Assembly: GCA_041659045.1 (NCBI GenBank)
Contig: JBAZZB010000001.1
Span: 6,111 to 70,110, forward strand
Reading direction: 5' to 3'
DNA: 64,000 nt
DNA from: Patescibacteria group bacterium
GTDB taxonomy: Bacteria > Patescibacteriota > Patescibacteriia > SG8-24 > DYFX01
The first letter of the stretch is position 1. Each line of letters opens with the position of its first letter. This document shows positions 4,232 to 36,640 of the stretch, one piece after another. The position numbers and the translations under genes are program-made. A model generated the notes under the pieces. That model did not search any database. It was not told the origin of the DNA and saw nothing but the letters and a program-made list of their open reading frames with translations.

Positions 4232-5416
4232 TTAGTCCGGTGACCAAGCGCTGATGAGAGGGATAAGCCGCGAGCCACATGTGCTTTTAACGCACCAGGT
4301 ACCGCCGCGCGCACGACTCTTTTCAGTGCCGCGCCCGCCACCGCCACCTTGAACCACCTGCATTTTGCCGCCCGAAGCCCAGCCCATGAAAATGACGGCG
4401 TGCGCACCCACCAAGTCTTCGTTTCCGTTATAGATGACAATACGGTCGCCTGGTCGGAGCTTGTTAGCCCAACCGTCAGGCCAATCTTTCGGAAGTCTTC
4501 CGGCGGCTTTTTCCGCGTTCATAAAATCACGGACTTTCGTCACCGCTTCGGAAGAGCTGTTTACGCACTCACCAGCAGGACGAGCCTTTCCGGGATACTC
4601 TTTTTCGACGCCGCAACGCCATCCAAAGAGGTATCTCCGTTGAGCGGTCGAGACGCTGAAGAGCTGTCGGCCTTTTCCATAATCGTTACAGTTTCCGTCC
4701 TTTGAATCGAGACATGAGACCTTACCGACGCCAGCCAGAGCAGTGATGGTACCGGCCGTATTACCGCATGATCCCCAGTTGACGTCACAGGCGTTGGCGA
4801 TGTCCGCGATCTGAATAACTCTATCGCGTGGATTCGTTGCGGTTACGGCGGAACTCATGGCAGAGCGGAATTGTACTTTTGAAGCTTTGCCGACCGTCAC
4901 GGTGAGCGGTATCGGACAGTTCGTGAAACTTGATGTGTGACTGCCGGGCAACGGTCCGCCCCCAGCGCCGCTGACGCTGTCTGATGCATCGCCGTCTTGT
5001 GCGGTTTCAACGGACGTGGTGCCCATTGTTTGAAAGTCTGCTGTCTCGGTTTGTATTTGCAGCAAACTTAAGGACTTGAACCTCACCAGATCCGGATTAA
5101 TCGTAAAGAGCAAAAGATAAGAACTCAATGCCAGAACGACGCCGATGAGCGCGTCGACGATTCTCTTTCTGGCGGCGCCAATCTTTCCAGAATCTCCCGC
5201 CGACGTTAAATACTGAAACCCGCCGATGATCATCATGACCGCGGCGACGACGCCGATGATGCTGATCAGAAACGTGTACGCGCCGCTCACGTACTGGCCA
5301 ATCCAGGGAATCGAGTACGCGTCCGTATCCGTAAGAGACGTAAGTGTGACGCCCGGGATAGGAATTTCGAGGCGTGGCGGCTCGTTTTGAGCGAGATGTG
5401 AAAATGTATCCTTCAT
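4232..5416 (-). CDS. membrane-anchored CHAP-domain peptidoglycan hydrolase with N-terminal T4SS-pilin-like (TrbC/VirB2-like) two-helix module
   Basis: N-term TM helix + ...IGGFQYLTSAGDSGKIGAARKRIVDALIGVVLALSSYLLLF (pilin-like Gly motif and second helix); C-term Cys (GECVNSS) and GDRIVIYNGNEDLVGAHAVIFMGW resembling CHAP Cys/His amidase. Confidence 0.75.
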   Translation of the reverse strand: MKDTFSHLAQNEPPRLEIPIPGVTLTSLTDTDAYSIPWIGQYVSGAYTFLISIIGVVAAVMMIIGGFQYLTSAGDSGKIGAARKRIVDALIGVVLALSSYLLLFTINPDLVRFKSLSLLQIQTETADFQTMGTTSVETAQDGDASDSVSGAGGGPLPGSHTSSFTNCPIPLTVTVGKASKVQFRSAMSSAVTATNPRDRVIQIADIANACDVNWGSCGNTAGTITALAGVGKVSCLDSKDGNCNDYGKGRQLFSVSTAQRRYLFGWRCGVEKEYPGKARPAGECVNSSSEAVTKVRDFMNAEKAAGRLPKDWPDGWANKLRPGDRIVIYNGNEDLVGAHAVIFMGWASGGKMQVVQGGGGGRGTEKSRARGGTWCVKSTCGSRLIPLISAWSPD

Positions 5417-5418
5417 AC

Positions 5419-6063
5419 TTACCGTACGGCTTCAAGAAGTTCTTCGTACGTCAGGGCGCCGACGTGGCGCTTGCCGTTGATGAAAAACGTCGGCAGCGCG
5501 TCGACGCCAAGTGCCAACCCCTCGTCGACCGTCCGTTCCACGAACGGACGCGTCGCATGGGTCCGCAAACACTCTGCAAACGATTGCATGTCGAGCCCGT
5601 TCTGCCCCGCCTCGAATGCTAAAGACGTTTCGTTAAACGAACCGGAGTAGCTGAAAAGCACTTCATGAAATTTCCAGAAGGCGCCTTGCTGTGCGGCGCA
5701 TAATCCGGCTTCGGCCGCTGTATCGGCGCCTTCGTGTAGGGGAGCGGGCATGTCTTTCCACACGTAGCGTACGCGTGTCGGTTGCTCCGCGAGCAGGCGC
5801 TGCACCGCCAACTCCGCCGTACGGCAATGCGGGCAGAGGTAATCGCCAAACTCGACGATCGTGATGCTGGCGTCTTTTGGTCCGACGATCTGGTCGATGA
5901 ACGTCACGTTCGGTTCCTCGAGTGTTCTCGTGACTGTTTCTGTTTTCGCGACGACGGGCGCGTTGCCTGAGATTGTTGCACGCACGACGTTCCAAAACAG
6001 CACAAGCACGGCTCCGCCAAGAACGAGAGCGACGAAAAGGATGAGAAAGAATTTATTTCTCAT
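5419..6063 (-). CDS. DsbA-family thiol:disulfide oxidoreductase (thioredoxin fold), membrane anchored
   Basis: N-terminal TM, CPHC active-site motif, DsbA-like length and C-terminal PTFFINGK. Confidence 0.85.
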   Translation of the reverse strand: MRNKFFLILFVALVLGGAVLVLFWNVVRATISGNAPVVAKTETVTRTLEEPNVTFIDQIVGPKDASITIVEFGDYLCPHCRTAELAVQRLLAEQPTRVRYVWKDMPAPLHEGADTAAEAGLCAAQQGAFWKFHEVLFSYSGSFNETSLAFEAGQNGLDMQSFAECLRTHATRPFVERTVDEGLALGVDALPTFFINGKRHVGALTYEELLEAVR

Positions 6064-6064
6064 A

Positions 6065-7282
6065 TCAGCGAAGAAGCATTTCTTTCAAGGAGCCGTCTTC
6101 TCCGGTGTAGTAGAGCTTCGTTCCGTCGGAAGAAACGACGAGTGAAGACATTGATGTGGATTCAGACGGCTGGCCGATGAATGAGGAGGTTCCGCTCACG
6201 AGGTCAATCTTCATGACGCGATCGGAAATCGTGCTCGCGATGGAGCGTTCCAAACCAGCGCCTTGCGGCAATGAAATCGGTACGGCGCAGTACAGGGTGC
6301 TGTCTCCTTGAAATGTGCATTTGTCCGCCCAAGTGTTGACGCCCAAGCTTCTGCGACTGCCGCCGACGGTATCACTGCCGGCGTCGACGATCCAAAGCAT
6401 CGGTTTGAAATCGCTAACTTGTCCGGCTGAGCTGTAAAGAAGCCGGCTGCCAGTTGGCGACCAGTTCGGTTCAAAGTCCAAGCCTTCGACGCGAAGGGCG
6501 GGGAAGTTTTCGTGGTTCTGGCCGATGACGAGCAGATCGCGCGTATCAAAGCCGACCGGATCAGCCGTGTCGGAGAAGGCGACGACGGAGGCGTCCGGAG
6601 AGACACTGACGGTGACCTTGTCGCCGTTCTGTCCGAGCGGTTCGATGAGCTTCGCGCTTGAGCCGTCGGAAGCGGCGCTGACCAGCCAGCGGTTCGCGGG
6701 GTCGAGCGCCATCGATTTTGCGATGATCGTCGAGCCGTCGCCGTTGAACGCGATTTCCTGCCAATGACTCGGCAGCGTGACCTGCTTTTGCGATTCGAAA
6801 TCGTAGATGATTTTTGAAGCGTCTGGGAACGTGAGAACGACTTTGTTGCCGGCGGGAGCCCAAACGATGTCTGTTGCGTTGCGGAAGGCTTGCGTGTTCA
6901 AGGATTCCTTCTCGCCGTTCGGCAGCACGCGGTAAAAGCGTCCTTCGATGCTGTTGTAATAGCTGAGCAGTCCGTTCGCCGCGAGTTTGGGATTGCTGGC
7001 GTTGTCTTCGGCGATCGTGACGGTCGAGCCGATGTTGGTTGTTCCGGACGCGCCAGGCGTCGCCGTGCCGGGCGACGTCGGAAGTCCGCCGGTGGGCGTT
7101 TCGGTGCCCGTTGTCGGTCTTCCTGTGCCGGCCGTTGGCAAGCCTCCCGGTGTCGTGACGCCGCCGTTGGTCGTTGGCGGAGGAGTGACCATCGGTGCGC
7201 CAAAAAAGAATCGATAGAGCAAATAGGCGAGACCGAACGTGACGCCGAGGAAGAGGACGATGATGGCAATTTTCTTGAACAT
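6065..7282 (-). CDS. TolB-like beta-propeller (WD40-like repeat) envelope protein with Thr/Pro/Gly-rich linker
   Basis: N-terminal TM anchor (start taken at MFKKIAIIVLFL), TTPGGLPTAGTG low-complexity linker, repeated ...SPDG/ SxDGxxL propeller-blade-like segments. Confidence 0.6.
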   Translation of the reverse strand: MFKKIAIIVLFLGVTFGLAYLLYRFFFGAPMVTPPPTTNGGVTTPGGLPTAGTGRPTTGTETPTGGLPTSPGTATPGASGTTNIGSTVTIAEDNASNPKLAANGLLSYYNSIEGRFYRVLPNGEKESLNTQAFRNATDIVWAPAGNKVVLTFPDASKIIYDFESQKQVTLPSHWQEIAFNGDGSTIIAKSMALDPANRWLVSAASDGSSAKLIEPLGQNGDKVTVSVSPDASVVAFSDTADPVGFDTRDLLVIGQNHENFPALRVEGLDFEPNWSPTGSRLLYSSAGQVSDFKPMLWIVDAGSDTVGGSRRSLGVNTWADKCTFQGDSTLYCAVPISLPQGAGLERSIASTISDRVMKIDLVSGTSSFIGQPSESTSMSSLVVSSDGTKLYYTGEDGSLKEMLLR

Positions 7283-7286
7283 ACGA

Positions 7287-8606
7287 TCAGAGGAAGGGGA
7301 TTGAGTCGACGGCTCGTCCGGCATCCATGATCGCGCCAAGGATGAAACCGAGCGCTCCAAGAATGGCTAAGTCGATGATCAACACCCAGAAGGTGATGAA
7401 AAACATGGCGACGATTTCTCCGAGCTTGAGCGGGAGCAGGGCGTGCGCTGGCATTTTCTTTCCGATCTCTCCGGGGAACCATTCTTTTCCGACTTCGGGA
7501 ATGTATTGTCGCAGGTATTTCGAGGCCCAACCGGCGAAGAAGAGAATGTCGATGATGTAGATGGAATGTCCGAAGGTCATCCAGAGATTCGACCACGACA
7601 TCTTGATGAGCCCGTTGCCGAACATCTTCTTGAGATCCTCGCCGCTCATCGGTATTCCACCAGGCCCCGTGCCTCCGGACGGCGTCGCGAGTTTCATGGC
7701 CAAGCCGGTTGGCGTGGGATTCTTGATGAGCGACATCGCGTCTTTCATCGAGAGGCCGCCGCTCTTTTTTTGCATTCGATCGTTCGTGAGACGATCTCGT
7801 CGTAGACGGTTTTCAAAATTTCGCTCACGACCCTGCCTCCCTTCTCCTTTTTCACCGAAGGCCGTCTTCGTTGTCGTGCCGTCGGCGTTGCGCACGTTCA
7901 TCGAGGATCTGGCCCATAACGGCGTGCTCCTCCGCTTTCTCCGCTCTTCTTCCTCTTCCTCCTCGCTGCGGTTTCCTTTATTTCCGCCCGAGATTTTTCC
8001 GCTGAAGCCCGCCGCCTGCATTTCTTGGGTCGCTCTACCGCTTACTTCCATCTTAAAACCTTCCTCCTTTGAGAGTTTGCCCAGGTTCTTTGCGCCTTGA
8101 CCGACAGATTTCACTCCCTCGCCGACCGATTTTACGCCAGAGCCAAGGCCTGCCACGCCGGAGCCGATGCCTTTTGCTCCGGCACCGAGCGCTTTGATAG
8201 GAGCGCCGAGCACTGAACCAAGTTTGCTGGATGAAAGAGCGGAACCAAGAGCACCGGCCCCCGAACCCACACCGCGCAAACCCTTGCCCGCCATCTCGGT
8301 GCCAGCGCCGACCAATTTCGCGGTACTTCCGAGAAATTTTGTTCCCGTTCCGACGGCGTTTAGCCCCCTCCCGACCTTTTGAAGGCCGCGGCCGACTTTG
8401 ATTCCAGCCTGAGCCTCCTTAGCGTTCATCTCCCGCATCGTACGAGTGAATTCATCCTCCTCATCTTCGTCGTCCTGTGCGCCCGATTGCGCTCCGCGAG
8501 AGGCTGAGCGGATACGTGATGGAGTTTTTGCCGACCGCAAACGCCGCTCTCGTTCCGCATCAACGGAGCTCGGATGGTTCGTAGATTGCGGCTGCATTGC
8601 GGCCAT
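7287..8606 (-). CDS. hypothetical protein with tandem G-x-G-x-K-x-(V/L)-G repeats and C-terminal 3-4 TM domain
   Basis: GGAGG RBS before ATG; repeats KVGRGLQKVGRGLNAVGTGTKFLGSTAKLVGAGTEMAGKGLRGVGSGAGALG...; acidic/basic central region; hydrophobic C-terminus. Confidence 0.55.
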   Translation of the reverse strand: MAAMQPQSTNHPSSVDAERERRLRSAKTPSRIRSASRGAQSGAQDDEDEEDEFTRTMREMNAKEAQAGIKVGRGLQKVGRGLNAVGTGTKFLGSTAKLVGAGTEMAGKGLRGVGSGAGALGSALSSSKLGSVLGAPIKALGAGAKGIGSGVAGLGSGVKSVGEGVKSVGQGAKNLGKLSKEEGFKMEVSGRATQEMQAAGFSGKISGGNKGNRSEEEEEEERRKRRSTPLWARSSMNVRNADGTTTKTAFGEKGEGRQGRERNFENRLRRDRLTNDRMQKKSGGLSMKDAMSLIKNPTPTGLAMKLATPSGGTGPGGIPMSGEDLKKMFGNGLIKMSWSNLWMTFGHSIYIIDILFFAGWASKYLRQYIPEVGKEWFPGEIGKKMPAHALLPLKLGEIVAMFFITFWVLIIDLAILGALGFILGAIMDAGRAVDSIPFL

Positions 8607-12216: not shown

Positions 12217-13008
12217 ATGATCGGTTCACGTTGTTTTTCGGTCGTTATCGCCTTCATGGCCCTGCACCTCGATCTCTCCAGTGTTTGGGCAGAGGCGTGT
12301 CCACCCAAGCCCGTCGTTGAAGAGGGCGGCACACATCGTTGCTATGCCGATGGAAGACGCGGACACGTACACCTCTGGACACCCAAGGAGTTTGAGCCGA
12401 AGTCGGCCGTGACCGTCATCTACGTGCACGGACACAACTTGCATGATGACGGCTGTGCGAATGCGCACTATCTCGATTGCGCGTGGGACGCCCACGGTCT
12501 CGCCTCGCAGTTCGCGAAGAGCGGACTCAACGCGCTCTTCGTCGCTGTCGAAGGTCCGGTGCGCGCTGGTCGTGACGTGAAGTGGACGTCGCTCGGTGTT
12601 CTGCTGCGCTCTGTGCGTCGCCGGGGCGGCATCGTTCCGCCGACTCCGGTCGTGGCCGTCGCGCACAGCGCCGGCATCTACACGGTCATGCGTTTCTTGG
12701 GCGACAGTCGTTTGCGTCACGTTGTTTCGCTCGACGCGCTGTATCTGCGTTCTCCGAAGGTGCTCGCGAAGTGGTACCGCGGTTCCAAACGTCGGCGTCT
12801 CACGCTTGTCGGCGCCGAATCGCGGTACGCGCGAACGTCCGCTCTTGGTCGAAAGCTCTCCTGCGCAAGCAAGACGGATGTCTTCGGTCCATACTCCAAC
12901 GCGCGGTGCGTTGTGGCCGTCGATCCTGACATCGGACACATGGATCTCATCCGCGACGGACGCGTCCTGCCAGGTGTTCTCGCTCGCATCAACACGGCTT
13001 CTCGATAA
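12217..13008 (+). CDS. secreted alpha/beta-hydrolase-like protein
   Basis: signal peptide (ending SSVWAEA), candidate nucleophile elbow VAVAHSAGIY (A-H-S-A-G), VIYVHGHN oxyanion-region-like; GC noticeably higher than neighbours. Confidence 0.5.
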   Translation: MIGSRCFSVVIAFMALHLDLSSVWAEACPPKPVVEEGGTHRCYADGRRGHVHLWTPKEFEPKSAVTVIYVHGHNLHDDGCANAHYLDCAWDAHGLASQFAKSGLNALFVAVEGPVRAGRDVKWTSLGVLLRSVRRRGGIVPPTPVVAVAHSAGIYTVMRFLGDSRLRHVVSLDALYLRSPKVLAKWYRGSKRRRLTLVGAESRYARTSALGRKLSCASKTDVFGPYSNARCVVAVDPDIGHMDLIRDGRVLPGVLARINTASR

Positions 13009-31222: not shown

Positions 31223-33028
31223 ATGTTTAGAAATAACGCATCGGCAAAAAAAGCTATCGTCTTCTGGTTGCTCGTCGTGCTCGTTATTGTTGCGAGCGCT
31301 TTTGCGTTTGTTGCCACGCAGCCGAGCCGCGTCGTTGTTCCCGTTGATACGACAGGCGCCGTGTTTCGCGATGCGGGGCAGTCAATCGATGCGCGCGTCG
31401 AAGACCTGCTGCAACGCATGACCGTCGCCGAAAAGATCGGCCAGATGGCGATGGTTGAAAAAAACAGCATCCATGATCGGGACGATATCGCCCGCTATGG
31501 AATTGGCGCGATGATCAGCGGCGGTGGCGGCAAGCCGGAGCCGAATACTCCGGCCGGGTGGCTTGCGATGGTCAACGGATTCCAAGAGGATGCCCTGCGT
31601 TCGCGTCTCGGCATTCCGCTGCTCTATGGAGCGGACGCCGTGCACGGGCATTCCAACGTACCTGGCGCGACGGTTTTTCCGCACTTCATCGGCCTCGGAG
31701 CCACACAGAACCCGGATCTCGTACGTCGGGTGGCAGAAGCGACGACAGCAGAATTGGCGGCGACGGGAATTTATTGGAACCTTTCCCCGAACCTCGACGT
31801 CGCGCAGGATGCACGTTGGGGGCGTATGTATGAATCGTTCGGTTCGGACACGGCTTTGGTGAGCGCGCTAGGTGCCGCTTACATGGAAGGGGTCAGCGCT
31901 GGAGGTGCCGCTATCGGCACGGCAAAGCATTTCGTGGGCGCGGGAGGTATGCGGTGGGGAACCTCTTCGAACAAAGAGTTCAAGATCGACCAAGGCACGA
32001 CCGACGAAGATGAAGCAATACTGCGGCGCGTGCATCTGCCGCCGTTCAAAGCAGCGATCAGTGCTGGTGCCGCCAGTGTCATGGTCGGTTTGAATAGTTG
32101 GAACGGGATAAAACTTTCCGCGAACCAGTACTTGCTGACCGACGTGCTCAAAAAAGAACTTGGCTTCGATGGCTTCGTTGTTTCCGATTGGTACGGCGTC
32201 TACGAGATTCCGGGAGGGGACTATCGCGCCGCAGTCACAGCCATCAATGCGGGCGTCGACATGGTCATGCTTCCGTTCGATTACAAAACGTTTATTCGCA
32301 ATGTCCGCGTCGCGATGGAGCGAGGCGAAATTTCGGAAGCGCGCATCGACGACGCCGCTCGCCGTATTTTGACGGCCAAATTCAAGGCGGGCTTGTTTGA
32401 TCGCTCACTCGCCGGCGATGAGGGGCTTTCAGTTGTTGGCTCAGAAGAGCATCGCGCCTTGGCGCGCGAGGCGGTGCGCGCGTCGCAAGTGCTTTTGAAA
32501 AATACGGCGAACACCTTGCCGCTCAGCAAAACTGCGTCGCGCATCGTCGTCGCCGGTTCTTCGGCGCACAACATCGGTCGCCAAAGCGGCGGCTGGACGG
32601 TGGAATGGCAGGGGATCGACGGCAACTGGATTCCCGGCACGACCATTCTCGATGCAATCAAGGGCGCGGTTTCTTCGCAGACGGAAGTTGAATACGATCT
32701 CGAAGGAAACTTTGTGGCGTCGAAGCCGTTGGCCGACGTGGGCGTTGCCGTTGTCGGCGAAGCGCCGTATGCCGAAGGCTGGGGTGACAGCGAACATCCA
32801 GCCCTCACGCCGGAAGATCTCCAGACGATCGACAGAGTCAAAGCTGCCAGTAAAAAAATCGTCGTGATTATCGTCTCCGGTCGCCCGCTCGATATTCGCA
32901 CGCATGCCTCAGCATGGGACGCTGTCGTCGCAGCCTGGCTTCCGGGAAGCGAGGGTCAAGGCGTTTCCGATGTGCTCTTTGGCGAGTATCCATTCACCGG
33001 AAAATTGCCGGTGGCCTGGAAGTTGTAA
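31223..33028 (+). CDS. glycoside hydrolase family 3 (beta-glucosidase/NagZ-like), membrane anchored
   Basis: GH3 N-terminal motifs KHFVGAGG, GFDGFVVSDW (catalytic Asp), plus C-terminal alpha/beta sandwich domain. Confidence 0.88.
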   Translation: MFRNNASAKKAIVFWLLVVLVIVASAFAFVATQPSRVVVPVDTTGAVFRDAGQSIDARVEDLLQRMTVAEKIGQMAMVEKNSIHDRDDIARYGIGAMISGGGGKPEPNTPAGWLAMVNGFQEDALRSRLGIPLLYGADAVHGHSNVPGATVFPHFIGLGATQNPDLVRRVAEATTAELAATGIYWNLSPNLDVAQDARWGRMYESFGSDTALVSALGAAYMEGVSAGGAAIGTAKHFVGAGGMRWGTSSNKEFKIDQGTTDEDEAILRRVHLPPFKAAISAGAASVMVGLNSWNGIKLSANQYLLTDVLKKELGFDGFVVSDWYGVYEIPGGDYRAAVTAINAGVDMVMLPFDYKTFIRNVRVAMERGEISEARIDDAARRILTAKFKAGLFDRSLAGDEGLSVVGSEEHRALAREAVRASQVLLKNTANTLPLSKTASRIVVAGSSAHNIGRQSGGWTVEWQGIDGNWIPGTTILDAIKGAVSSQTEVEYDLEGNFVASKPLADVGVAVVGEAPYAEGWGDSEHPALTPEDLQTIDRVKAASKKIVVIIVSGRPLDIRTHASAWDAVVAAWLPGSEGQGVSDVLFGEYPFTGKLPVAWKL

Positions 33029-33959: not shown

Positions 33960-34277
33960 ATGAAGAAGCGAAACCTGTTCAGCGAACGCGTCATCGAGCT
34001 CGCGCTCTCAATCCCGAAAGGCCGCGTCACGACCTACGGACGACTCGCCCGCGCCGCCGGCGGGGCTCTGCACCGGCCGGTGCAGAGCGGGGGAACGATG
34101 GCCTCGCAAAGCATCACGTCGATTCTTTGGAAAGCCGAACAGCGCGGCGTCAAGAATATTCCGTATCATCGGATCGTGTATGCGGATGGGAGGATTTGGA
34201 TTGATCCGAAGCGGCGAGGGAGAGGTTGGCGCTTTATAAGAAGGAGGGGATTAGAATTGACGAAAGAGACAGGATAA
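33960..34277 (+). CDS. MGMT-fold DNA-binding protein, alkyltransferase-like (ATL) with active-site Cys replaced (PYHRIV)
   Basis: helix-turn-helix TTYGRLARAAG and P-Y-H-R-I-V where O6-alkylguanine transferases have P-C-H-R-V. Confidence 0.65.
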   Translation: MKKRNLFSERVIELALSIPKGRVTTYGRLARAAGGALHRPVQSGGTMASQSITSILWKAEQRGVKNIPYHRIVYADGRIWIDPKRRGRGWRFIRRRGLELTKETG

Positions 34278-36640
34278 TAGCCTTGTAACAAGGTCGTGTT
34301 ATAGTCAAAAGGTGTCTTAAAATGCAATACGATTTTCAGAATCTTTCTCCAATAGAGTTTGAACATCTCGTTCAAGATCTTTTGCAAGAAGAATTCAAAA
34401 TCTCTTTAGAGAGCTTTGCTCCTGGTCGAGACCAAGGAATTGATTTGAGATACGCGAAAGCAAAGAAAAAAGACCTGATTGTTCAATGTAAAAGATATAA
34501 ATCGGCAACAGATTTGATGCCTGTTTTAAAAAAGGAACTTGAGAAAGTAAAAGCCTTAAAACCAGGTCGATACATATTAGCGACATCTGTCAGTCTCACC
34601 CTAAACCAAAAGCTAAAGATAAAAAAGCTCTTTAAACCGTATATCCGTGCTACGGGAGATATTTTAAGTAAGGAAAGTATAAACAATCTAATTACAAAAA
34701 ATGAAAATGTTGAACTAAGGCACTTTAAGCTTTGGCTATCAAGTACAAACATTCTACGGAAGATTATTCACAGCAAGGTCATAAACCAGGGGAAGTTAGA
34801 ATTGGATAAAATAAAAGAGGAAATTAAATTTTTTGTAGATAACTCGAGTATTGGAGATGCGCTCGATATTTTAAGAAAGACAAAAGTTATTGTTATTTCT
34901 GGTCTACCAGGTATTGGTAAAACAACACTGGCAAGAATGTTGGCCTACCATTACTTGGCAAGAAATTCATACGAAGAGTTTGTATATATATCTGATTCAA
35001 TTAGTGAGGGGTATGAAAATTTTCAAGAAGGAAAAAAGCAGGTATTTTTATTTGATGATTTTTTGGGCAGAAGTTTTCTGACAAAAGACCTACCTACAAA
35101 CGAAGACAAAAGAATAATTGAATTCATTGAAAGTATTAAACGGGCGCCAAACAAGGTTTTGATTGTCACTACTCGCGAATACATTCTTGAACAAGCAAAG
35201 AAGAAGTATGAAAATTTAAATAGCGTTGAGGTGGGTTTTTCCAAATATGTTCTGGATCTGGCCGTTTATACAAAAATGATTAAGGCAAAGATATTGTATA
35301 ATCATTTGTTTTTTTCGACGGTCCCTCAGGGGTACATCCTGGATCTATTAAAATCAAAGCACTATTTAAACATTATTAATCACAAGAACTATAGCCCTAG
35401 AATCATAGGTGCTGTCACAAAACCAGCAATTTGGGAAAAAATTGTGCCAGATAAGTACTCTGAGTTTTTTAAGAATTCTTTGGATCATCCAGACAGTATT
35501 TGGGAACACGTATTTTCAAATCAGATCACCCCGCTATCCCGCTTGATAGTCTTAACTAAATTTACTTGTGGGGAAGGATCGACATTTCTTACGGATCTCA
35601 AGGATGCGACTGAAAAGTTAGTTAAAGAGTGTGGTTTAAATTATGGAGCTGTATTTAATGCAGAAAACTTTAATAATTCGATAAAAGAGCTTGAAAGAAC
35701 ATTCATTCAAATATCAAAGGATGATTCTAACCAATTGGCAGTCGAATTTCAAAATCCATCCATCACTGATTATTTGCGTGACTATTTAAAAAACAATGAA
35801 TCTGTAGTTTCAGATTTAATTGGAGGAGCATTGTTTTTTGACCAACTCTCCCTTCCGTATTCTTTTGAGAGTGAAAAAAAATATGGAGGCATACTTTTAA
35901 GAAAACCATTGATAGAGAAAGTGGTTGAAAGAATGTCTAAAGAGTATCAATCGTTGGTATACGCGCGCCTTACGAGAGTTTATTCTATTGGTGAAGAGAG
36001 TTTTAGATGGGATAGAACTGAGGCGGGTGTGATTCAGAAGGCACAGACTGTTATAGATAAAATTGGTACTTCAATAATCGGGCAAGTTAGGCCGTTGCTA
36101 CCCACCTTAGTCAAAGATCTTATTTTAAAACGTCTTACCTATGTAGAAAGAGGACAGGTTCCAGCACTCGTTTACAAGTTAAGAAAATTTCTCACCACGG
36201 ATTTCCATGAAATCATGGAGAATTACTTAAATAGCATTTACTACTTTCCAGATGTCTTGCGTTTTTTGGAGTTTAAGCGAGTCTCAAGAAAAGAGTATAG
36301 AAAGTTTCTTAAGAAGAATCTTCAAAAGTTAATAGAAAAGATCAATTTTGCCTTAGAAAATGAGATGGATTTTATAGATAATACAGAACTCCCCAATCTT
36401 ATAAACCATGTTCAAGATGTTCAATTACGACTAGGGATCGATCTCAGCGCGTTTATTGAAAGAATAGAAAATGAAGTTCAGCTTAGAGAAAAGAAGAGTG
36501 ACCCCGAAGTTAAAGAGATTAATTTTGAAAGAGAAGAAATTGGATCCGAGATTGATATTGTAAAAATGTTTGATTCATTAGTGGATCAAAACAAAGATTG
36601 AGGTACATTTCCCCGTTCGCCCTTCCTCCTGTAAGATCGG
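34230..36640. mobile_element. AT-rich horizontally acquired island (single gene, no integrase)
   Basis: abrupt drop to roughly one-third GC by eye between high-GC ATL gene and dnaE; AT-rich codon usage throughout the ORF. Confidence 0.55.
34322..36601 (+). CDS. Mrr-type restriction endonuclease domain fused to NB-ARC/STAND-like P-loop NTPase with helical C-terminal region (Avs-like candidate defence protein)
   Basis: N-term FEHLVQDLL...GRDQGIDL...LIVQCKRY (Mrr_cat PD-(D/E)xK pattern); Walker A GLPGIGKTT; Walker B KQVFLFDDFLG; sensor-1-like KVLIVTTREY (compare NB-ARC GxGGxGKTT / LLVLDD / TTR). Confidence 0.8.
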   Translation: MQYDFQNLSPIEFEHLVQDLLQEEFKISLESFAPGRDQGIDLRYAKAKKKDLIVQCKRYKSATDLMPVLKKELEKVKALKPGRYILATSVSLTLNQKLKIKKLFKPYIRATGDILSKESINNLITKNENVELRHFKLWLSSTNILRKIIHSKVINQGKLELDKIKEEIKFFVDNSSIGDALDILRKTKVIVISGLPGIGKTTLARMLAYHYLARNSYEEFVYISDSISEGYENFQEGKKQVFLFDDFLGRSFLTKDLPTNEDKRIIEFIESIKRAPNKVLIVTTREYILEQAKKKYENLNSVEVGFSKYVLDLAVYTKMIKAKILYNHLFFSTVPQGYILDLLKSKHYLNIINHKNYSPRIIGAVTKPAIWEKIVPDKYSEFFKNSLDHPDSIWEHVFSNQITPLSRLIVLTKFTCGEGSTFLTDLKDATEKLVKECGLNYGAVFNAENFNNSIKELERTFIQISKDDSNQLAVEFQNPSITDYLRDYLKNNESVVSDLIGGALFFDQLSLPYSFESEKKYGGILLRKPLIEKVVERMSKEYQSLVYARLTRVYSIGEESFRWDRTEAGVIQKAQTVIDKIGTSIIGQVRPLLPTLVKDLILKRLTYVERGQVPALVYKLRKFLTTDFHEIMENYLNSIYYFPDVLRFLEFKRVSRKEYRKFLKKNLQKLIEKINFALENEMDFIDNTELPNLINHVQDVQLRLGIDLSAFIERIENEVQLREKKSDPEVKEINFEREEIGSEIDIVKMFDSLVDQNKD

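Follow-up and report, generated by a model that had tools for sequence, protein, structure and literature searches.

The 64,000-nucleotide stretch analysed here (the window), part of contig JBAZZB010000001.1 of a Patescibacteria group bacterium, carries on its minus strand a gene (4232..5416) whose product joins a membrane hairpin of the VirB2-like pilin type to an enzyme-like domain; all features of this gene given below lie on the same strand. The coding sequence runs from an ATG start over 394 residues to a stop codon, and is defined by the open reading frame list, by an identical public protein (P0001, titled 'MAG: pilin [Patescibacteria group bacterium]' and encoded on a 646-kb contig, MAG standing for metagenome-assembled genome) and by 21 full-length homologues with 30-82% identity to the target protein (homologue search, alignment A1). 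The gene is real, far beyond chance, and under selection. Its product consists of a VirB2-like two-helix hairpin, a flexible linker of ~45 residues and a globular domain of 236 residues. A preliminary description of this DNA had proposed a pilin-like module of a type IV secretion system (T4SS) fused to a CHAP peptidoglycan hydrolase, and both of the segments that it had singled out are present in the protein, the N-terminal motif as MMIIGGFQYLTSAGDSGKIGAARKRIVDALIGVVLALSSYLLLF at residues 61-103 and the C-terminal histidine segment as PGDRIVIYNGNEDLVGAHAVIF at residues 322-343. What is new is a divergent CHAP-like domain that has no family model and is carried on a VirB2-like hairpin.

The VirB2/TrbC-like hairpin (residues 37-113; 5078..5308), delimited with Pfam and AlphaFold2, comprises a first transmembrane (TM) helix at residues ~43-67, a K/R-rich loop at residues 68-88 and a second TM helix at residues 89-106, which is followed by the sequence INPxLVxF. 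Residues 45-99 (nt 5120-5284) score 27.9 bits with the PF18895 T4SS_pilin model, slightly more than its gathering cutoff of 26.6 (E = 2.5e-6), and 86 of the 104 family members that were scanned match PF18895 at E<=0.01, the best of them with an E-value of 2.1e-11. The TrbC/VirB2 model gave a weak match in a few family members, and the NCBIfam Mbov_0395 family of pilin-like conjugal transfer proteins a match below threshold (22.4 bits versus 40). When the full-length alignment was supplied to AlphaFold2, two helices were predicted at residues 37-71 and 76-106, with a predicted local distance difference test (pLDDT) score of ~67-78. The pilin-like half of the proposed fusion is therefore borne out by a hidden Markov model (HMM) match above the gathering score, by its recurrence through the family and by the predicted fold.

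Ahead of the hairpin lies an N-terminal tail (residues 1-36; 5309..5416) with a net charge of -3 (alignment A1, charge count) and a conserved P-x-LEIPIPG motif at residues 14-22. Most homologues possess a cleavable signal peptide that ends in ...A-x-A-Q immediately before this motif (alignment A1). The target protein lacks one, because its stop-to-stop frame leaves just five further open codons upstream of the ATG, and the signal peptide is also missing from P0002, P0003, P0010 and P0018 in the same alignment. A remnant of the cleavage site persists in the signal-less members (HLAQNEPPRLE versus ...ARAQDAPRLE), which suggests that the signal peptide was lost and that the tail may be translocated by another route. 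The loop between the helices has a net charge of +2 (charge count), the region that spans residues 107-158 one of -5. Because of the positive-inside rule (loop +2, N-terminal tail -3), the loop is predicted to be cytoplasmic, with both ends of the hairpin and the C-terminal domain outside. The linker itself (residues 114-158; 4943..5077) is acidic, rich in Ser, Thr and Gly and predicted to be disordered (pLDDT <50 for residues 120-157); it is poorly conserved, with 11-39% identity among family members. In 84 of 92 members, identity is higher over the hairpin than over the enzyme domain (means 46% and 38%). The hairpin is therefore probably more than an anchor, for example a means of docking to a membrane partner, although such a role beyond anchoring is suggestive only, as the restricted residue alphabet of membrane helices inflates these identities. 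A homologue search with the N-terminal module alone returned two truncated fragments only.

The C-terminal globular domain (residues 159-394; 4235..4942), hereafter the C-domain, contains nine cysteines and combines, in its AlphaFold2 model, an N-lobe of helices with a sheet of five strands. It defines a family of its own: among 1.84 billion protein cluster representatives, a profile built from 19 C-domains recovered 205 at E<=1e-3, including 184 at E<=1e-10. The pilin module is also present in 138 of 161 sampled members, and most of the others are short fragments. Nearly all relatives that carry an organism name are Patescibacteria; the other labels look like those of mis-binned MAGs. Column conservation over 130 complete, diverse C-domains singles out a Cys-His pair, which had been expected from the preliminary description. 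The proposed nucleophile Cys217 (codon 4766..4768, checked against the sequence) is Cys in 128 of the 130 members (98%), where it lies in the motif G-S-C-G-x-T-A-G, and the proposed general base His339 (codon 4400..4402) is His in all 130 (100%). Gln356 (codon 4349..4351), which is proposed to complete the triad, occupies a column of mostly polar residues (77 Gln, 15 Asn, 14 Glu, 11 Ser and 4 Asp among the 130). His339 follows the G323-D324 pair by 15 residues, and Gln356 follows His339 by 17. Also conserved are Gly323 (100%), Asp324 (98%), Asn332 (92%) and four further cysteines, Cys167 (97%), Cys210 (98%), and Cys375 and Cys380 (98% each).

A domain-only AlphaFold2 model (residues 159-394, 130-sequence alignment) reached a pLDDT of 94.9 and a predicted TM-score (pTM) of 0.92. 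DSSP assignments on this model show that Cys217 opens the helix 217-227, that His339 lies within the strand 338-346 and that Gln356 closes the strand 351-356, positions that would correspond to the layout of a papain-fold triad. In Foldseek searches with the model, nothing in PDB or BFVD reached E<=1e-3, and the borderline neighbours that head both lists are CHAP lysins. In PDB the top match was Ly7917 (5d76; E = 1.4e-2, prob 0.84), with PlyPy, S. aureus 5t1q, Gsp amidase, LysK CHAP-K, LysGH15 and PcsB next; in BFVD the matches were mostly phage proteins annotated 'CHAP domain' (best E = 1.1e-3, prob 0.98). TM-scores to these neighbours were just 0.2-0.34, and structures of the NlpC/P60 type ranked below CHAP structures. 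The nearest CHAP domains (LysK CHAP-K, Ly7917 5d76, PlyPy 5udm/5udn, PcsB and Gsp amidase) share with the target a Cys that precedes the His, the placement of that Cys at the N terminus of a helix, and a His in the strand after a (P)GD hairpin. The target differs from them in size (~236 residues versus ~140-165), in its large Cys-rich helical N-lobe, in a variable insert of ~85 residues (residues 230-315) and in the residue before the Cys, which is Ser in the target family and usually Gln in CHAP (the 'QC' motif). We conclude that the C-domain probably has a papain fold, strongly diverged and nearer to CHAP than to other families, with an enlarged and Cys-rich N-lobe.

All nine cysteines of the target protein lie in the C-domain, and their number across the family is informative. 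The 130 members have between 6 and 17 cysteines, and in 120 the count is odd (7, 9, 11, 13 or 15), a bias with P ~2e-25 under independent random parity, although the sequences are related and hence not independent. Members with seven cysteines usually retain residues 167, 210, 217, 375 and 380 together with either 268/284 or 235/243; the trio 167/210/217 is always kept, and the other cysteines vary together as pairs. Pairs are thus gained and lost jointly, and one cysteine is always left unpaired. An odd count fits a disulfide-bonded, extracytoplasmic domain with a single free catalytic thiol, and among the invariant Cys167, Cys210 and Cys217 we infer from the motif and the position at the start of a helix that the free one is Cys217. 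Across the family, 3 to 8 disulfides are predicted per C-domain.

These data also bear on the idea that the C-domain has no catalytic activity and serves at the surface, stabilised by disulfides, for instance as an adhesin or a receptor-binding head, in which Cys and His have structural or metal-binding roles. The domain is indeed very rich in cysteine and matches no enzyme family by sequence, and a sister family carries, on the same hairpin, another Cys-rich domain that has no catalytic signature. However, the parity of the cysteines points to one that is deliberately left unpaired, and His339, G323-D324 and the polar residue at +17 match the papain-fold triad in both pattern and position, so that we regard a non-catalytic role as very improbable.

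A candidate source of the disulfides lies next to the gene. The DsbA-like thiol-disulfide oxidoreductase encoded at 5419..6063 on the minus strand (214 residues, N-terminal TM segment; PF13462, E = 2.2e-24; PF01323, E = 7.7e-15) has a stop codon that ends 2 nt ahead of the target ATG (junction ...CGG TAA GT ATG...). A DsbA gene stands beside the target orthologue in all orthologous loci, with a pilin fusion between the two in L004, L005 and L014.

Proteins related to the target through the N-terminal module alone (41-77% identity over ~100 residues) carry other C-termini on the same hairpin, namely VanY, SLT, 3D, Peptidase_C39_2/C70 and several of no known family. The largest group of this kind consists of 27 proteins with an unrelated Cys-rich C-domain of ~300 residues and ~20 conserved cysteines, for which kinship with the target C-domain was considered and rejected (hhalign Prob 0.1%). 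The genes of this group directly follow a second DsbA paralogue, in a further conserved housekeeping block, SecG-DsbA-fusion(s)-UvrA, and this second module of DsbA and one or two pilin fusions was located in genomes of relatives at L016 9205-11314 and L017 7855-11488. The occurrence of VanY, SLT, 3D and C39-like domains among the relatives of the hairpin would by analogy count in favour of peptidoglycan as the substrate. Elsewhere in the window (12217-13008, plus strand) is a gene for a 263-residue secreted protein, which carries a signal peptide and has no match in Pfam. It is 38% identical over 257 residues to a portion of a 697-residue fusion from L004 (probably its N-terminal domain), so that a domain joined to the hairpin in L004 stands free here.

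A profile search of genome contigs with a narrow C-domain alignment gave 8 loci. Wherever the contigs of orthologous loci reach far enough, the gene order is HtpX-ClpB-unknown membrane protein-beta-propeller-DsbA-target-RadA-RecG. This synteny holds in loci where ClpB is just 42% identical to that of the window, and one of the loci with the conserved block belongs to a complete 1.17-Mb Patescibacteria genome. An origin as a phage or mobile-element lysin was ruled out, the locus being syntenic with housekeeping genes over deep divergence. In the window, the DsbA gene is preceded on the minus strand by a gene for a membrane-anchored beta-propeller (6065-7282; weak PD40 repeat match) and by the first gene of the block (7287-8597), for an unknown membrane protein with no Pfam match; gene calls are from L015. 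The product of the latter has 436 residues here versus 218-286 in relatives, owing to a long, repetitive, glycine-rich N-terminal extension (VGRGL/GxGAK-like); its ~174 C-terminal residues are conserved. Several of the MAG records with a Patescibacteria-type block (L007 and L009-L013) are titled 'uncultured Gammaproteobacteria bacterium', and the protein P0019 is labelled Candidatus Baltobacteraceae; these titles are probably those of mislabelled or mis-binned records.

In L004, L005 and L014, the pilin fusion between DsbA and the target orthologue is a second and larger one, which in L004 (697 residues) has the PF18895 hairpin at its centre, between an N-terminal domain and a weakly VanY-like C-terminus. 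L004 and L005 also have, past RadA-RecG and ~5.7 kb from the orthologue, genes for a VirB4-like ATPase (DUF87/AAA_10/P-loop_TraG) and a TraC-like protein (L004 14918-17239; L005 10107-11744). These two loci come from near-identical lineages, in which VirB4 is 96.5% identical. At the other loci VirB4 was not found within their RecG-side flanks of 0.3-10 kb, and the whole 64-kb window has no VirB4, VirB6 or VirD4-type gene and no second pilin module. The window begins at RecG, and the counterpart of the VirB4 region of L004 falls just outside it.

This neighbourhood has to be set against what is known of the secretion systems in which such hairpins occur. The T4SS of Patescibacteria are related to the conjugation systems of monoderms (Quinonero-Coronel et al. 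2025, PMC12102498). VirB2-like pilins (PF18895, PF04956) are found in 1,948 assemblies and near virB4 in 1,135, often as arrays, and VirB1, which in monoderms joins SLT and CHAP domains, is missing from most of these genomes, where other hydrolases may fill in (PMC12102498). The Patescibacteria VirB2/TrbC-like pilins and the target family have in common the Pfam family, the hydrophobic hairpin, the basic loop and, as a rule, the signal peptide. However, those pilins are small stand-alone proteins, often encoded in arrays of 2-11 genes near virB4 (PMC12102498), whereas the target has 394 residues with a linker and an enzyme-like domain, and its gene is present as a single copy in the window, within a housekeeping block and after DsbA. 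TraG of pIP501 and PrgK of pCF10, the monoderm VirB1 proteins, resemble the target, as we read it, in being membrane-anchored extracytoplasmic wall hydrolases with a cysteine peptidase module of the CHAP type, a likeness of domain plan. They combine SLT with CHAP behind a single TM anchor and are encoded in a T4SS operon; the target has no SLT, is anchored by a VirB2-like hairpin and is encoded outside any such operon. As a concept, it would fill the place of the VirB1 missing from most T4SS loci in Patescibacteria. No paper that describes pilin-hydrolase fusions was found in the literature searched.

The protein might accordingly be thought to work with or within a T4SS pilus, as a VirB2-like subunit and VirB1-like hydrolase in one, with a hairpin that docks at or co-polymerises with small VirB2-like pilins and an enzyme that opens the cell's own wall or that of a host. 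VirB2-like pilins beside virB4 have been detected with the very Pfam family to which the hairpin belongs, and most Patescibacteria genomes lack a recognisable VirB1, for which other hydrolases may substitute (PMC12102498). The CHAP domain of TraG and PrgK, the VirB4-like and TraC-like genes of L004 and L005, and the higher conservation of the hairpin in those 84 of 92 members, which suggests specific protein contacts, point in the same direction. Against this, neither the operon nor the 64-kb window contains a T4SS gene, VirB4 is nearby in just one lineage (L004/L005), and the conserved partners of the gene are DsbA, the beta-propeller, ClpB, HtpX, RadA and RecG; moreover, a head of 240 residues on each subunit would be hard to fit into a filament of the VirB2 type. 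The family of the hairpin and the lack of VirB1 speak for a function in a T4SS pilus, the gene context speaks against it, and we consider such a function unlikely. The link to a pilus or to attack on a host that the preliminary description had entertained likewise finds no support in this context, which is a housekeeping block without T4SS genes.

A broader form of the pilus idea takes the PF18895 hairpin in general as a module for polymerisation or docking, the fusions to VanY, SLT, 3D, C39-like and Cys-rich domains then being minor subunits of the essential VirB2-like pilus, which would bear wall-degrading enzymes at its tip or along its surface. We hold this to be decidedly improbable; if it were true, such a pilus might breach the wall of a host or supply the VirB1 function, and the DsbA genes upstream would serve to fold the heads.

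We favour, with somewhat better than even confidence, the view that the protein is a cysteine hydrolase of the CHAP or NlpC/P60 kind, tethered to the membrane, facing outward and folded with the help of DsbA, and that it cuts the peptide part of the cell's own wall as a core envelope function. In this mechanism, the basic loop between the helices would reside in the cytoplasm, and the ends of the hairpin and the enzyme domain would face outward. The co-transcribed DsbA would form four disulfides (167-210, 235-243, 268-284 and 375-380), leaving Cys217 free to act as the nucleophile, with His339 as the base and Gln356 orienting His339. The flexible linker would give the enzyme domain the reach to act on the cell's own wall, either in housekeeping remodelling for growth or division or in opening the wall for envelope machines. 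Genomes with an adjoining VanY-like pilin fusion would pair both enzymes.

Several results weigh against this hydrolase model. No Pfam match to CHAP (PF05257) or NlpC/P60 was obtained at E<=10 for the target or the 19 C-domains; CHAP was likewise absent at E<=0.01 among the 104 family members, and NlpC/P60 (PF00877) from the Pfam scans of those members and of the 19 C-domains alone. NCBIfam gave no enzyme-family match for the C-domain, PHROGs no enzyme family but unnamed families matched by single members (best E = 0.0054), and PDB sequences no match to single-sequence queries or to the 19- and 130-sequence profiles. Comparison by hhalign was also negative. The 130-sequence C-domain profile gave a Prob of 0.2% against an alignment of homologues of the LysK CHAP-K domain, the query for which is 98% identical to a PF05257 cluster; this alignment was too narrow. 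After it had been broadened by 12 phage CHAP domains (staphylococcal, enterococcal and streptococcal), the result was still not significant (Prob 0.9%, P = 0.058). In these non-significant alignments His339 falls on His117 of CHAP-K and Gln356 on Glu134, which we take to be catalytic residues of that enzyme, and both spacings are 17 residues. The comparison with the narrow alignment paired Cys243 with the CHAP Cys at zero confidence; Cys243 was rejected as a nucleophile, since it belongs to the pair 235/243, is missing from most seven-Cys members and does not start a helix. The nearest approach to a named family was that of the NlpC/P60-type amidases (clan Peptidase_CA), which appear below their curated cutoffs in 2-3 of the 104 members. 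Amidase_6 (PF12671) was seen sub-threshold in 2 of these (best listed E = 0.0051) and in 1 of the 19 C-domains scanned alone (E = 0.0015), with residues 438-504 of P0013 aligned to model positions 69-137, the GD...H region, at 17.4 bits (cutoff 23.2); DUF1175 (PF06672) gave a sub-threshold match in one member. Further points on this side are that the closeness of Cys217 to His339 and the disulfide pairs are predictions, and that in a protein without a signal peptide the proposed topology leans on the positive-inside rule and on the homologues. Membership of the C-domain in PF05257 is not demonstrable, and of the two domains named in the preliminary description only T4SS_pilin (PF18895) has HMM support; for the CHAP half, what stands is the conserved Cys-His pair and the nearness, borderline in Foldseek, of CHAP lysins to a model with a pLDDT of 95.

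The substrate is a separate question. Papain-fold enzymes also include ones that do not act on the wall, such as Gsp amidase, proteases, transglutaminases and acyltransferases, which likewise tells against a wall hydrolase; peptidoglycan is accordingly proposed as the substrate on the strength of the domains of relatives. An extracytoplasmic protease, transglutaminase or acyltransferase that acts on surface proteins, pilins or host molecules, with the hairpin as a mere anchor, would suit the versatility of this class of fold, Gsp amidase and IdeS both being structural neighbours of the C-domain. It would also suit the Peptidase_C39_2 and C70 domains of relatives, which are families that cleave proteins, and the Pfam scans of the target and its family, in which no LysM, SH3b or PG_binding module was found. 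However, wall lysins rank highest among the structural neighbours, other relatives have the wall enzymes VanY, SLT and 3D at the same position, and a membrane tether may replace a wall-binding module. We therefore regard a non-wall substrate as rather unlikely, and retain the hydrolysis of the cell's own wall as the preferred function.

Two further features of the window are recorded here in their own right. Positions 34001-36601 form a sharp island of low GC content (37.7% versus ~57% elsewhere), which holds an open reading frame (34322-36601, plus strand) for a protein of 759 residues with Mrr_cat restriction-endonuclease and nSTAND3 NTPase domains; this looks like a horizontally acquired defence gene. 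A gene at 31223-33028 on the plus strand encodes a 601-residue, membrane-anchored member of glycoside hydrolase family 3 (PF00933, E = 1.7e-74).

The public label 'pilin' thus covers a protein that is two-thirds an enzyme-like domain, one that has no family model and ~200 representatives. Both the T4SS and the pilin array that belongs to it are essential in Southlakia epibionticum, and what the system does has been termed completely unknown. Epibiotic growth of Patescibacteria requires the T4SS. Fusions of the hairpin to wall-active domains are concrete candidates, and a lead, for how the wall is handled in these organisms. Counts of PF18895 matches as VirB2 pilins need caution, since some of the matches that are not near virB4 may be fusions of this kind at housekeeping loci; in that case, what the hairpin provides may be anchoring or export in general, and its presence would be no proof of a pilus. 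The repeated pairing of DsbA with Cys-rich pilin fusions suggests that these minimal cells have oxidative folding dedicated to their surface enzymes.

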